Numbered from the stretch's first letter, positions 56,571 through 64,000 are shown. The stretch is 64,000 nt of DNA from Escherichia coli (GCF_036507355.1 NZ_AP027877.1), one strand, 5' to 3'. The notes: a model not told the origin generated them from the sequence alone. Program-made: numbers and translations.

Positions 56571-56636
56571 TGTTCTTTCCCAGATTCCTAATATGGCAAC
56601 TTTAAGTTATCGCCGTCTATACTTATAGAAATTTCA

Positions 56637-57092
56637 TCAGGGGTGACATAAATAGAATTTTTTTTCATCCTCAATTGCCCATAACTGATTAATAAAAAAG
56701 TGTTTTTTATCATCTAATAACAAATCATCACATGTAGTAAAATTATTAATATCAAAAAAATCATCAGCACAATTAATTTTTAAATTTAAAAAATAAAGAA
56801 AAATATTATTGATTGATTTGAGTGTAAACCACTTGTCATTAACAAATTTATAGCCAGATGATTTTATAAAATAATAATTATCTCCTGGTATAAAGGCATA
56901 CATATCATTTAAGGTTATACTCAACAAAAAACTACGACCTGGTTTAATAGTATTCCAGCGTTCAGGATTCGTATTAATTTCAAAAGGACATGAACCACCT
57001 AAGTAGTCCAACGTGATATTCCCAGAGTTGATCCTGGATGGTTTTTTGCATATCGCATCATATTCATCTCCTTTTCCATCTTTTACTTTCAT
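56637..57092 (-). CDS. hypothetical protein, AT-rich; candidate immunity/accessory protein
   Basis: 151-aa ORF; start ATG overlaps stop of upstream ORF (ATGA); no recognisable domain. Confidence 0.4.
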   Translation of the reverse strand: MKVKDGKGDEYDAICKKPSRINSGNITLDYLGGSCPFEINTNPERWNTIKPGRSFLLSITLNDMYAFIPGDNYYFIKSSGYKFVNDKWFTLKSINNIFLYFLNLKINCADDFFDINNFTTCDDLLLDDKKHFFINQLWAIEDEKKFYLCHP

Positions 57093-57379
57093 AGGTAGAT
57101 AATATTTAGAAAAAAATACGTGGTAGAGCTATTGTTAGTAAAGGTTATGTTAGCAAAAATCCTGTTATTTTTTTTACTCATAGCTAATTGAGCATTGACA
57201 TCCGCTATATAATTTATATGATTACATTTTTTCTTACACTCATCATAATTTTCGATAGGATAAATTAATGGCCTTCCTTTGATATCTCTCTCAAGCCCAA
57301 ACCCGTATTTTTTTATTAAAACCATTTCATCCGCAGTCGATTGAAAGGAATAGAAAAATATAATATTTACGATTGTCAT
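57089..57379 (-). CDS. hypothetical small protein, candidate immunity protein for the upstream HExxH toxin
   Basis: 96-aa ORF directly downstream of the metallopeptidase-like gene; hydrophobic N-terminus; AT-rich. Confidence 0.35.
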   Translation of the reverse strand: MTIVNIIFFYSFQSTADEMVLIKKYGFGLERDIKGRPLIYPIENYDECKKKCNHINYIADVNAQLAMSKKNNRIFANITFTNNSSTTYFFLNIIYL

Positions 57380-57431
57380 TATTATGATTTTTTTATAGCT
57401 TGCAGCATTAATATATTTCTCGACTTATTAG

Positions 57432-58223
57432 TTAATGGAGAAGTGTTTTTTCTAATTCCGCTATTTTTTTCTTAACTGAATTGCTTAATATTTCATCATT
57501 AATCGAGTCTATCTCACTTTCAATTAATCTTATTTCAAAATATCTTTCTATGTTATATGCATTCTCAAATATTTGATCTTTTTGTTTAGAGATCAGTTTA
57601 GTTGCAATACGGATATGTTCGTCATATGAAACTTCATCCTCTTTGCACGTTGAATATTTATCAGTAGTTGTATAATCCTGTGACCACATACCACCTTTTT
57701 TATTATCCCCATAATACCACTGAATATGAGACATTTCATGACATAAAGTAGCAACATGAGAATCCTTTCCCGTTACTGGATTTTTTTTGCCATCTCTATA
57801 CTCAAATTTTGCGCCTATGTTAATTATATAGGGCATATCCTTACTTGGGCTGACGAATGCTGCAAATTCATTACAACCTGTATAATTTATAAAACTGCTC
57901 ATTGTTAAATCATTAGCTATAATCATTAATCTTCTCACGCCATCCATCATAAGAAATCTAGCATTCATGCGCCTACCTGTATTATGTCCATATTTTCTTA
58001 TATTAACTTCCTTATTTCCTTTAACACCAAAGATCTTACTGAAATAATATTCCTCCTGTGCTCCCCATCTCAAAAGATCATCTGCTCTTTTTATCAAAAC
58101 CAACTTTTGTGCCTTACGAGCCTTATCAATCATTATTTTAAAATGATCAGTTATTTTTTGCTCTTTCACACATTCTTCTGGCTCTGGCTTTGGTTGTCCA
58201 GAAGTTTGATTATTATCGTCCAT
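57432..58223 (-). CDS. HExxH zinc-metallopeptidase-like putative toxin (orphan effector module)
   Basis: ORF 57432..58280; likely start at Met20 (MDDNNQ..., 58223) with SD ggaagga upstream; motif ATLCHEMSHIQWYYGD (HExxH); very AT-rich; sits in T6SS cargo island. Confidence 0.55.
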   Translation of the reverse strand: MDDNNQTSGQPKPEPEECVKEQKITDHFKIMIDKARKAQKLVLIKRADDLLRWGAQEEYYFSKIFGVKGNKEVNIRKYGHNTGRRMNARFLMMDGVRRLMIIANDLTMSSFINYTGCNEFAAFVSPSKDMPYIINIGAKFEYRDGKKNPVTGKDSHVATLCHEMSHIQWYYGDNKKGGMWSQDYTTTDKYSTCKEDEVSYDEHIRIATKLISKQKDQIFENAYNIERYFEIRLIESEIDSINDEILSNSVKKKIAELEKTLLH

Positions 58224-58410
58224 AGTGTCCTTCCATTGAGAGAAAATCATCATTCGCAAATAGCAACTAAAAAGCAGCATTACTTGACCTTTCCCTGCAT
58301 AACAATATTTATAAAATAATACGTTTTATGATCTCACCTTGGGCTCCCAACAAGATAATTTCAGTTTTAAAGACTTTCACGAAAAAAATATAGAAATACC
58401 TCACCACCCT

Positions 58411-58701
58411 TCACTTACCAATTAATCTCACAGGAAATCCAACTTCCTTACCACAAATACAATCCCAAGTAACACCTCCCAAAATTTTTGATACTTTAGG
58501 CTGCAATGGCATTATTGACATTATAAATTTATCAAGTTCTTCGCTATATTTAATTCCCTTTATATTTCTTATTATTGATATTCTAGCAGTAAAGATAGCC
58601 GTCTCTCCATCTACACTAAAAGTGTAATTACAATTTTTTGTAATCTCATCAAATTCAACCGATAACAAATCAATATTATGGTTTGTAAACACTATGCCCA
58701 T
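58411..58701 (-). CDS. small protein, candidate cognate immunity protein
   Basis: 96-aa ORF whose start overlaps the 3' end of the effector gene by 26 nt; no signal peptide evident. Confidence 0.45.
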   Translation of the reverse strand: MGIVFTNHNIDLLSVEFDEITKNCNYTFSVDGETAIFTARISIIRNIKGIKYSEELDKFIMSIMPLQPKVSKILGGVTWDCICGKEVGFPVRLIGK

Positions 58702-62379: not shown

Positions 62380-62414
62380 CGCTTCAATGGGAAATTGTTG
62401 TCGCCATTGTTCGA

Positions 62415-62717
62415 TTAACGCGTATTTTTCAGCGACTCCTGTGCAAAATACGCTGTTGCTTTTTTTAATATATCTCGCTCAAGGCGAGCTTCATTTAACG
62501 CCTTACGCAGTTGCAGAATTTCAGATTCCAGTTCAGCCACCGTGCGGGAACCAGGAGTACCGAGCCCTTTTCTGGCGGCGGTAACCCATTGTCCTAAAGT
62601 GCCTTCAGGAAGAGATAATCGGGAAGCGCCTTCACTGATCGAAAGTTGATTTTCAAGAACCGTTCTGACAGCTTCGGCTTTGAACTCTTTAGAGTAACGT
62701 TGGGTTTTTCTGCTCAT
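62415..62717 (-). CDS. IS3-family transposase OrfA (HTH)
   Basis: 100-aa ORF MSRKTQRYSKEFKAEAVRTVLENQLSISEGASRLSLPEGTLGQW...; slippery heptamer at about 62449-62456 near its 3' end. Confidence 0.85.
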   Translation of the reverse strand: MSRKTQRYSKEFKAEAVRTVLENQLSISEGASRLSLPEGTLGQWVTAARKGLGTPGSRTVAELESEILQLRKALNEARLERDILKKATAYFAQESLKNTR

Positions 62718-62781
62718 TATTAGCTCCTTCTGATGCCATTCTATTTCAGGAAGGAGTGTCCGTTAAACTCAGGCTACCTCA

Positions 62782-63707
62782 GGATGCCCCGTCAGCGTAA
62801 ACCGCGTTCCCGGCCACAGCCTCGGCGAATTACTCTGCCCTGTGGCCTTTTCCGCATCACTGCGCAGGCTCTCCATCTGGTACAGCGTGAAATCCTTGCC
62901 GTGCTGCTCATCCTTGAACCTTCCCGGATAATCAAATATTTCATACTGCGCCAGCTGTCCGTTCAGGTTCTCACCCTGCTGCTCATACATCCCCGGCCAG
63001 TCCGGCACCTTAAACGTGTAATCCTGGCTCTGCACCGACGACGGGCGGACATGCGCCTCATAACGGAACATACTGAGACACTCCGTCTCCGCTCCTGCCG
63101 ATGTGTCCGGGTTAAACGGAAGCTCTCCCGCCTGTGACAGCCCCGCCACATCGTCGCACAGCGTCAGCTTCTGCTCCGGACTGTCCGCCGCAAACCGCTC
63201 AAAGAAGAAAATTCCCTCCTCCGCCCACAGCCGGGACAGAAACGCCAGGTCGCTTTCCCCGTACTGGACACAGAACTCCCGCGCCGGATGGTCCTCATAA
63301 AACAGCGGCGTCCACTCCGTGACGCCGTTCTCGTTCAGTAACGTGGCCGATATCGTCCGGATATCCTGCTGCTGGAAGATACGGAAGTTCTGCCGCAGCC
63401 CGCACCGCCATAACGGCGGCTCAATACGCAGGTGATAACGCATCTGCCAGCCGTTATTCTCCTGCATACCAAAACCCGCCACCACGCCGGTGACATAACG
63501 CTGCGCCACTGCGCCCTGCCAGATGGTCAGCGTCGCCTTCTTCTCCAGCAGCATCTCCGCCGTCTGCATAAAAGAGTCGCTGGCAACATCCACACTCATC
63601 ACAAACGGATATGACTGGCTCTGGATTAACCGGAAGCTCACCACTGCAAAGGTGTCCGGCTCCTGGCCGTCAACCTCCAGCGTAAAGCGAAGACCTTTTA
63701 ATGACAT
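62782..63707 (-). pseudogene. vgrG: vgrG (T6SS spike), proximal part (gp27-like), upstream of IS insertion
   Basis: MSLKGLRFTLEVDGQEPDTFAVVSFRLIQSQS... typical VgrG N-terminus; reading frame runs into the IS end (adds EVA then stop). Confidence 0.85.
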
Positions 63708-63726
63708 AAATACCTCTCAGACATAT

Positions 63727-64000
63727 CAGCCTATATTTACCGTGCCGCCACCGATAACCACGCCGCCGCAGTCAACAGCATCACCGCTTCTGGCGGCGGG
63801 CAGACCGTCAATAAAGACGGTTGAAGAACCTCTGGCGATTTTTCGGGGATGAGGGGGATGCTTCGGTTTAGCATGCGGCGTCAGCGGATCTCCCTGACGG
63901 GCTGCGGGAAGACCATCGATAAAGACGGTGGATGACCCGGCGGTGATGACGGTCTCGTAATAACCGTCGTGCTGGGTGCCTTTGTCGGTGAGTTTGGCTG
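63727..64000 (-). CDS. PAAR-domain protein, 3' portion (5' end beyond window)
   Basis: minus-strand translation ...SSTVFIDGLPAARQGDPLTPH...GSSTVFIDGLPAARSGDAVDCGGVVIGGGTVNIG*: repeated PAAR motifs; stop at 63727, 19 bp upstream of vgrG start. Confidence 0.7.

Follow-up and report, generated by a model that had tools for sequence, protein, structure and literature searches.

Among described toxins, those closest to the cargo of the locus considered here, a predicted type VI secretion system (T6SS) spike-and-cargo island at the end of a 64,000-nucleotide stretch of Escherichia coli DNA (GCF_036507355.1, NZ_AP027877.1; the whole stretch is hereafter the window), are reported to act in either the cytoplasm or the periplasm. 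In E. coli ATCC 11775, Cpe1 is delivered by the T6SS and works as a papain-like protease with Cys362 as its catalytic residue: it cuts the ATPase domains of GyrB and ParE at GG motifs. The immunity protein Cpi1 blocks it by competing for the surface that binds the substrate (Song et al., PLoS Biol 2025, PMC12136450). The toxin StbD-CT combines a YajC-dependent cytoplasm-entry domain, an auto-processing linker cut between GG and A, and a C39 peptidase, and it has already been noted that Cpe1 shares this entry domain and processing site (bioRxiv 10.64898/2026.05.07.723447). Effectors with DUF4150 ("PIPY") domains reportedly need a cognate DUF2169 protein to form a functional spike with VgrG (PMC11883445). 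On the periplasmic side, "M35-PAR" of E. coli PAR was reported to be toxic when targeted to the periplasm and to be counteracted by the gene next downstream (Commun Biol 2023, PMC10673891), and the C-terminal metallopeptidase domain of Pseudomonas aeruginosa VgrG2b has been described by its authors as thermolysin-like, with a Glu (E983) as additional ligand (PMC6899460).

In the window, the minus strand between 56.5 and 64.0 kb carries a PAAR gene, vgrG, a DUF2169 remnant, a PAAR-like cysteine-peptidase effector, an immunity gene, an HExxH protein and a partner gene. A reading made from the DNA without databases (the sequence-only reading) had proposed a T6SS spike-plus-effector/immunity architecture here; all the open reading frames (ORFs) it named are present on the minus strand, and hidden Markov model (HMM) searches returned the PAAR, TssI/VgrG, DUF2169, Tox-PAAR-like and C39 families, with a weak M35 match in Pfam. 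We put at roughly 0.85 the probability that the locus is an orphan T6SS spike-and-cargo island with two stacked effector/immunity modules that no longer works as a delivery locus. What we report on gene identities, lesions, junctions and distribution comes from the DNA comparisons below; for Cpe1/Cpi1 biochemistry and the DUF2169 requirement we draw on the literature through sequence identity. That earlier view of an orphan spike island with horizontally acquired, AT-rich cargo in decay is thus supported, but its effector combination, which it did not recognise as characterised, comprises the published and crystallised Cpe1/Cpi1 pair and a member of an HExxH family with a tested E. coli representative. 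RefSeq already gives names to these island genes, and the components are known ones; no new system is revealed.

The Cpe1-Cpi1 cassette and its spike genes

The first module would consist of PAAR, VgrG, DUF2169, Cpe1 and Cpi1. Its effector gene (58676-60115, minus strand) is intact and encodes 479 aa, matching a RefSeq-named Cpe1 at 471 of 479 positions, with all eight differences before residue 300; residues 337-479 are 100% identical to PDB 9L5U_A, and Cys362 is present. Residues 15-115 match Tox-PAAR-like PF13665 (DUF4150; expectation value (E) 1.9e-11) and residues 352-474 match the Pfam Peptidase_C39 model (E 1.2e-5). Cpe1 is the protein anticipated to be PAAR-like with a C-terminal papain/C39-like domain. 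Between these lies a region resembling the StbD-CT entry domain (~189-330), followed by a processing site between G336-G337 and A338 and the C39/papain-like peptidase (338-479). The intact cpi1 gene (58411-58701, minus strand, 96 aa) overlaps the 3' end of cpe1 by 26 nt and is 100% identical to "Cpi1" of PDB 9L5U_C, so the overlapping ORF proposed as an immunity gene has proved to be one. Since the toxin domain is identical to 9L5U_A, the window Cpe1 would be expected to cleave GyrB and ParE as the reference protein does. NCBIfam HMMs gave no match for Cpe1, Cpi1, the M35-like protein, its partner or the DUF2169 remnant, and the RefSeq names of these proteins evidently come from other rule types.

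In an intact form of this module, the PAAR-like (DUF4150/PIPY) N-terminus of Cpe1 would be placed on VgrG, with DUF2169 acting as chaperone, and the assembly fired into neighbouring cells. The entry domain, of the type found in contact-dependent inhibition (CDI) toxins, would by homology carry Cpe1 across the inner membrane, and the peptidase would then cut the Gly-Gly motif in the GyrB and ParE ATPase domains, stopping replication and segregation, while Cpi1 would shield kin by competing for the substrate-binding surface.

The spike genes in the window depart from this form. The PAAR gene, encoding the spike tip, occupies 63726-64000 (minus strand) and is collinear with the annotated PAAR gene of strain PapRG-04-4, our intact reference locus (L001); its 90 available codons score 152.6 bits against NF033420 (T6SS_PAAR_dom), for which the cutoff is 124. 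The gene had been taken for a PAAR 3' end, and the PAAR identity stands, but 275 of its 285 nt are present: the window ends 10 nt short of the start codon, leaving the first three codons outside. The 5' part of vgrG (tssI) follows at 62782-63707 (minus strand, start codon at 63707; TIGR03361, E 4.4e-76, profile positions 1-302), and its middle part lies at 60765-61517 (minus strand; E 1.7e-99, profile positions 298-513), aligning with positions 17161-17922 of the PapRG-04-4 locus; both matches lie above the model's cutoff. The two pieces are separated by a 1264-bp copy of the IS3-family insertion sequence IS600 (61518-62781, minus strand) with TG...CA ends and a 3-bp GGA target duplication (61515-61517 and 62782-62784). 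The element contains orfA (62415-62717) and orfB (61561-62379), its transposase matches the IS3 model NF033516 (E 3e-100), and it shows 99.9% identity to annotated copies of IS600, an insertion sequence typical of Shigella and some E. coli. Without the element and one of the GGA copies, vgrG reads through 561 codons in a single frame, with 96.4% identity to the intact 660-aa VgrG of PapRG-04-4. No continuous VgrG/TssI frame with its C-terminal cargo-specifying region remains in the window, where IS600 splits the gene and the last ~100 codons are gone.

Those codons were lost in a second lesion, which the sequence-only reading missed although it had correctly seen the insertion in vgrG. Relative to PapRG-04-4, 803 bp are absent, comprising ~100 codons of the vgrG 3' end, a 106-bp intergenic region and the first ~130 codons of DUF2169, so that the vgrG body is joined to the middle of the DUF2169 gene. 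The junction (60758-60764) is a 7-bp microhomology, TTTTATC, found in both PapRG-04-4 flanks. What remains of the chaperone/adaptor gene (60108-60764, minus strand) is the C-terminal 218 of 348 codons (PF09937, E 2.6e-45, model positions 115-294 of 294), and the full 348-aa gene is intact in PapRG-04-4 and in a B2-type reference locus (L003). Because of this deletion, the 196-aa ORF that had been tentatively called an adaptor can be read as a C-terminal DUF2169 remnant beginning at an internal ATG; it holds the position expected of DUF2169, between vgrG and the DUF4150 effector, at less than full length.

Since vgrG is both interrupted and shortened, and DUF2169 has lost its N-terminal third, this locus should no longer be able to load Cpe1. 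T6SS-dependent delivery of Cpe1 from here is accordingly doubtful, and we infer its loss for this locus only, given that 64 kb of the genome are visible.

The CDI-like part of Cpe1 raises the question of whether the island belongs to a T6SS at all. A remnant of an Rhs, CDI or phage-tail locus would be in keeping with the rhsE remnant at the corresponding K-12 site and with the homology of the Cpe1 entry and toxin regions to a CdiA-like C-terminal region, yet the PAAR, TssI/VgrG and DUF2169 models all match strongly, no Rhs/YD or filamentous-haemagglutinin repeats were found in the island ORFs, and in B2 strains the same vgrG-DUF2169-cpe1-cpi1 block sits beside the genes of a complete T6SS cluster. 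We regard such an origin as extremely improbable, and an Rhs or CDI locus was rejected on the three family matches.

The M35-like protein and its partner gene

The second module would be what remains of an older island with the gene order PAAR-vgrG-M35-immunity, as in strain NU14. The HExxH metallopeptidase-like protein that had been noticed in the DNA is real: an intact gene at 57432-58223 (minus strand) encodes a 263-aa M35/aspzincin-like protein with H162, E163, H166, D183 and a C-terminal NAYNIERYF motif (221-229). A longer ORF of 282 aa can be drawn, but relatives begin at its Met20, and its first 19 codons overlap, in a different frame, what is left of an older vgrG 3' end; they are probably not part of the M35 gene. 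A homolog search gave 29 relatives, all with source names in the Enterobacterales and many called "peptidase M35", and in the alignment (20 family members for HExxH) the two His, the Glu and D183 are invariant. D183 is the candidate third zinc ligand, which in M35 is an Asp in a GTxDxxYG-type motif behind HExxH. Here it lies in GGMxTxDY, and its spacing from HExxH is 17, due to an insertion, against 9 in short homologs and the canonical enzymes, with an ambiguous loop alignment to AsaP1.

Pfam Aspzincin_M35 matches the protein weakly (E 0.005). A PDB search with the single sequence gave no match, and a family profile was therefore needed; it matched AsaP1 (E 2e-6) and GfMEP (E 1e-3), a significant family-model match that assigns the aspzincin fold to the window protein. 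An exhaustive search with this profile yielded ~25 clusters at E <= 1e-30 and 250 at E <= 1e-3, the weaker ones in longer proteins.

In Salmonella, Buttiauxella and other E. coli, each M35 homolog examined starts in overlap with a vgrG stop codon and is directly followed by a 266-308-aa protein with no Pfam domain. The window lacks the first of these features, since only a 17-codon vgrG tail persists there. The partner gene is present at 56637-57408 (minus strand; aligned with the DNA of strain PapM-32-1, locus L004) and would encode, when intact, a 257-aa candidate Sec-exported immunity protein. Partners co-vary with their M35 neighbours, are mutually homologous (26-41% identity) and have hydrophobic, signal-peptide-like N-termini ending in small-x-A, as judged by eye. 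No significant Pfam match was found for the window partner, its homolog search gave only unnamed E. coli proteins, and its AlphaFold2 model (pLDDT 48) was unusable, so that structure prediction yielded no fold information. The module would thus pair a zinc peptidase of aspzincin fold, whose translation normally overlaps that of its own vgrG, with a Sec-exported partner, and such a pair would fit a periplasm-acting toxin with periplasmic immunity.

The two further small ORFs that had been listed beyond the HExxH protein are one gene. Alignment with PapM-32-1 shows that a change from T8 to T7 at 57110-57116 cuts the partner ORF (247/257 aa) into pieces of 96 and 151 aa. At a second run (57388-57394), the window and PapM-32-1 have A7 and NU14 and PapRG-04-4 have A8; the A7 state takes away the Lys-rich start of the partner signal peptide. 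More generally, strains differ in these AT-rich genes mainly at poly-A/T runs: M35 is frameshifted in PapRG-04-4 (L001 13034-13824), and both genes have altered C-termini in NU14 (L016 7092-8691). Such differences look like recurrent slippage or sequencing error at homopolymers.

E. coli PAR provides the tested member of the family. In its metV T6SS cluster, a frameshifted vgrG is followed by ORFs of 262 and 308 aa, the first 30% identical to the window M35 protein (E 6e-33) and the second 26% identical to its partner (E 1e-21). By analogy, the window protein would act as a toxin in the periplasm. The further idea that it is an active periplasm-acting T6SS toxin with a target or cleavage specificity undescribed for any T6SS effector is tentative, and on balance we doubt it. 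Lys-directed cleavage of an envelope protein is one possibility, raised only by the structural match to a peptidyl-Lys metalloendopeptidase. Any novel activity, if confirmed, would belong to the family at large (~500 of 5426 complete E. coli genomes) and not to this window in particular; one family member, at 30% identity, has been tested.

Origin, decay and retention of the island

The order of events is suggested by a short relic. The last 17 codons and stop of an older vgrG (LLFANDDFLSMEGHYGR, then the stop codon; 58213-58266, minus strand) overlap the M35 ATG, with stop codons ahead of them; they match the VgrG tail of NU14 exactly and that of Salmonella at 65% identity. At the same chromosomal site NU14 carries PAAR, an 801-aa vgrG, M35, the partner and an ISAs1 remnant, and homology of the window to the B2-type vgrG-DUF2169-cpe1-cpi1 block ends at 58266. 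Because of this coincidence between an NU14-identical tail and the end of B2 homology, the cpe1 block probably recombined into an older PAAR-vgrG-M35 island through vgrG homology, which would have left 17 old vgrG codons and orphaned M35. Later lesions in this genome would be the IS600 insertion in vgrG, the 803-bp microhomology deletion and the homopolymer frameshift in the M35 partner. An exact-match scan of a species-representative genome collection gave no match to the vgrG/IS600 junction, and among 5426 complete RefSeq E. coli genomes, the best of which reaches 99.0% core identity, none shows the window's combination of lesions.

The island appears to be an orphan in relatives as well. 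It stops there at yncG/ansP, with no tss core genes beyond PAAR, and it is from these loci, rather than from direct inspection of the source genome, that the sequence past 64000 is judged. The sequence-only reading had left open an orphan island or the edge of a larger cluster; the orphan alternative is the one that held. At the other end, window positions 1-50000 align at 98.8-99.0% with an ordinary E. coli chromosome (pqqL, dosP, yddA/B, ddp, fdn, maeA, narU, narZ), and no T6SS structural (tss) genes are among the feature names listed for that chromosome.

Several points weigh against a disabled two-module island. Neither cpe1 nor M35 has been shortened or has lost a catalytic residue, so both could still be in use, and a second compatible VgrG/DUF2169 set elsewhere in the genome is possible. 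Pfam's own aspzincin model matches the M35 protein only weakly, and periplasmic action of this exact M35 subfamily is a prediction; the PAR protein (L014 27631-28419) is equated with the published AKO63_2955 (M35-PAR) from gene order, because RefSeq shows no old locus tags. Finally, sequencing error might account for both homopolymer differences in the partner.

Two of these points can be developed into alternatives. Cpe1, M35 or both might still be fired by loading in trans on a VgrG, with DUF2169, encoded elsewhere: cpe1 is intact (479 aa, Cys362), the M35 ORF keeps all invariant residues, and E. coli strains often have several vgrG loci. However, cpe1-cpi1 is confined to a single copy in every complete E. 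coli genome that has it, DUF2169, PIPY and VgrG partners reportedly come as cognate sets (PMC11883445), M35 homologs are translationally coupled to their own vgrG, here a 17-codon relic, and the core genes matched by positions 1-50000 include no listed T6SS genes. We therefore consider continued firing unlikely. Slightly less so, but still improbable, is that some of the decay is technical, with T7 versus T8 and A7 versus A8 in the 28%-GC partner being sequencing or assembly errors in an intact gene. Both differences do fall in runs of 7-8 identical bases, and relatives differ among themselves at such runs, as in the PapRG-04-4 frameshift and the NU14 C-termini; yet the A7 state recurs in the independent complete genome of PapM-32-1, real slippage is frequent at such runs, and neither the IS600 insertion, with its duplicated target, nor the deletion at a microhomology is the kind of feature that errors produce.

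Of 5426 complete E. coli genomes, 300 carry the full cpe1-cpi1 pair, always as a single copy, and 508 carry at least 80% of the M35 module. Besides PapRG-04-4 and the B2-type locus, we compared two decayed variants: an O145-type locus (L002), in which a deletion from vgrG to mid-cpe1 joins the vgrG body to the 3' third of cpe1 (10274-12249), and PapM-32-1, which has lost most of vgrG and has no annotated DUF2169 (L004 10857-11111). In all four loci cpi1 is intact, with 0-1 amino-acid differences from the window Cpi1. Because separate deletions in the O145-type and PapM-32-1 lineages leave cpi1 intact, delivery genes seem to have been lost repeatedly across lineages while immunity was retained, and cpi1 may be of continued protective value.

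This could mean that the island is now kept mainly for immunity, its delivery genes decaying while cpi1 is retained against E. coli that fire Cpe1. The constancy of cpi1 in decayed and intact versions alike agrees with this idea, as does its survival in O145-type genomes, from which the 3' end of vgrG and the 5' half of cpe1 are missing, and exposure to Cpe1 is plausible given the frequency of the full pair. On the other hand, cpe1 is intact too, although selection for immunity alone could do without it; the M35 partner, also a putative immunity gene, carries a frameshift; and short genes are more likely than long ones to survive by chance. We see retention for immunity as a serious possibility that nevertheless falls short of being the probable explanation.

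The locus is a textbook example of T6SS cargo island evolution, with a probable block swap inside vgrG followed by independent decay in separate lineages. It should be of use for comparative studies of orphan-immunity retention, and it points to an under-studied family of M35-type effectors.

Two other loci were observed in passing. A Salmonella contig (L005 9735-10814) carries vgrG, M35 and the partner, then a second, N-terminally truncated vgrG (359 aa) and unannotated ORFs, a layout that suggests tandem stacking of vgrG cassettes akin to that proposed for the window. The pheV island of E. coli PAR (L013, NZ_CP012379.1 3144086-3169079) contains T6SS gene fragments (VasL, ImpA N-terminus) adjoining a two-partner-secretion/CDI-like locus with a VENN-motif pseudogene, another decayed island of interbacterial competition.

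Chromosomal setting and comparison with known systems

The island lies at the yncG-pptA site, both genes flanking it in annotated relatives. Because K-12 MG1655 has rhsE and ydcC remnants between these genes (yncG-yncH-rhsE(pseudogene)-ydcD-yncI(pseudogene)-ydcC-pptA), the earlier assignment of the island to the rhsE/ydcC locus of K-12 was right. Its description of the cargo as AT-rich is borne out by GC contents of 0.28-0.40, against 0.50 in the first 55 kb of the window and 0.57-0.585 in vgrG and PAAR; by gene, the values are 0.28 for the partner, 0.31 for cpi1, 0.32 for M35, 0.38 for the DUF2169 remnant and 0.39 for cpe1.

The island boundary is marked by the 3' remnant of an ISAs1-family (H-repeat, ydcC-like) transposase gene (56069-56515, minus strand; NF033564, E 7e-29) with 98% identity to the K-12 ydcC 3' end. 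A 720-bp insert (55349-56068) separates this remnant from pptA and is missing in K-12 and most relatives, its first 211 bp being common to PapRG-04-4. Within the insert lies the 3' end of a gene for a GGDEF diguanylate cyclase (ORF 55803-56015; TIGR00254, 38.4 bits), the intact form of which adjoins an alkyl/aryl-sulfatase gene in other E. coli.

Compared with the island of NU14, that of the window has the same yncG to pptA/yddH site, the same PAAR, an M35 module that is 98.5% identical and the same ISAs1/H-repeat boundary, but it contains an additional vgrG-DUF2169-cpe1-cpi1 block. In K-12, an Rhs remnant stands at the same insertion site in place of the island.

The first module is closest to Cpe1-Cpi1 of ATCC 11775, with which it shares an identical toxin domain (337-479) and 96-aa Cpi1, the PAAR-like N-terminus, Cys362, the overlapping immunity gene and the upstream position of DUF2169 and vgrG. 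In the B2 strain N50 the cassette lies next to the T6SS core cluster, whereas in the window it lies in the orphan yncG-pptA island with vgrG and DUF2169 broken. StbD-CT/StbI of Citrobacter rodentium (PDB 8SSK/8SSM) is a CdiA-like C39 peptidase toxin and immunity pair with GyrB/ParE as target, as for Cpe1; residues 189-477 of Cpe1 align over the whole of StbD-CT (8SSK; E 1.7e-81). Delivery differs, by a CDI filament for StbD-CT and by a T6SS spike for Cpe1, and Cpi1 and StbI are only distantly related (E 6e-9).

The second module resembles M35-PAR in its vgrG-toxin-partner gene order and its conserved HExxH and NAYNIERYF motifs, but the two belong to divergent subfamilies. The PAR type stands behind a DUF2345-type VgrG in the main cluster; the NU14/window type stands behind an 801-aa VgrG, with no DUF2345 noted, in an orphan island, and in the window that vgrG is gone and the partner frameshifted. 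Relative to the secreted M35 aspzincins GfMEP (1G12), AsaP1 (2X3A) and deuterolysin (1EB6), the window protein is only 16-21% identical, has neither signal peptide nor propeptide, and carries an extra N-terminal helical hairpin and a C-terminal helix; its family is T6SS-delivered. Like the VgrG2b C-terminal metallopeptidase/PA0261 of P. aeruginosa (Wood et al. 2019, PMC6899460), it would be a T6SS zinc peptidase with a periplasmic target and cognate immunity. No sequence or fold match was found between the VgrG2b domain and the M35 family, and the two differ: the M35 family has an invariant Asp where the VgrG2b domain is described with the Glu ligand, and the VgrG2b domain is fused to VgrG, whereas the window protein is free-standing.

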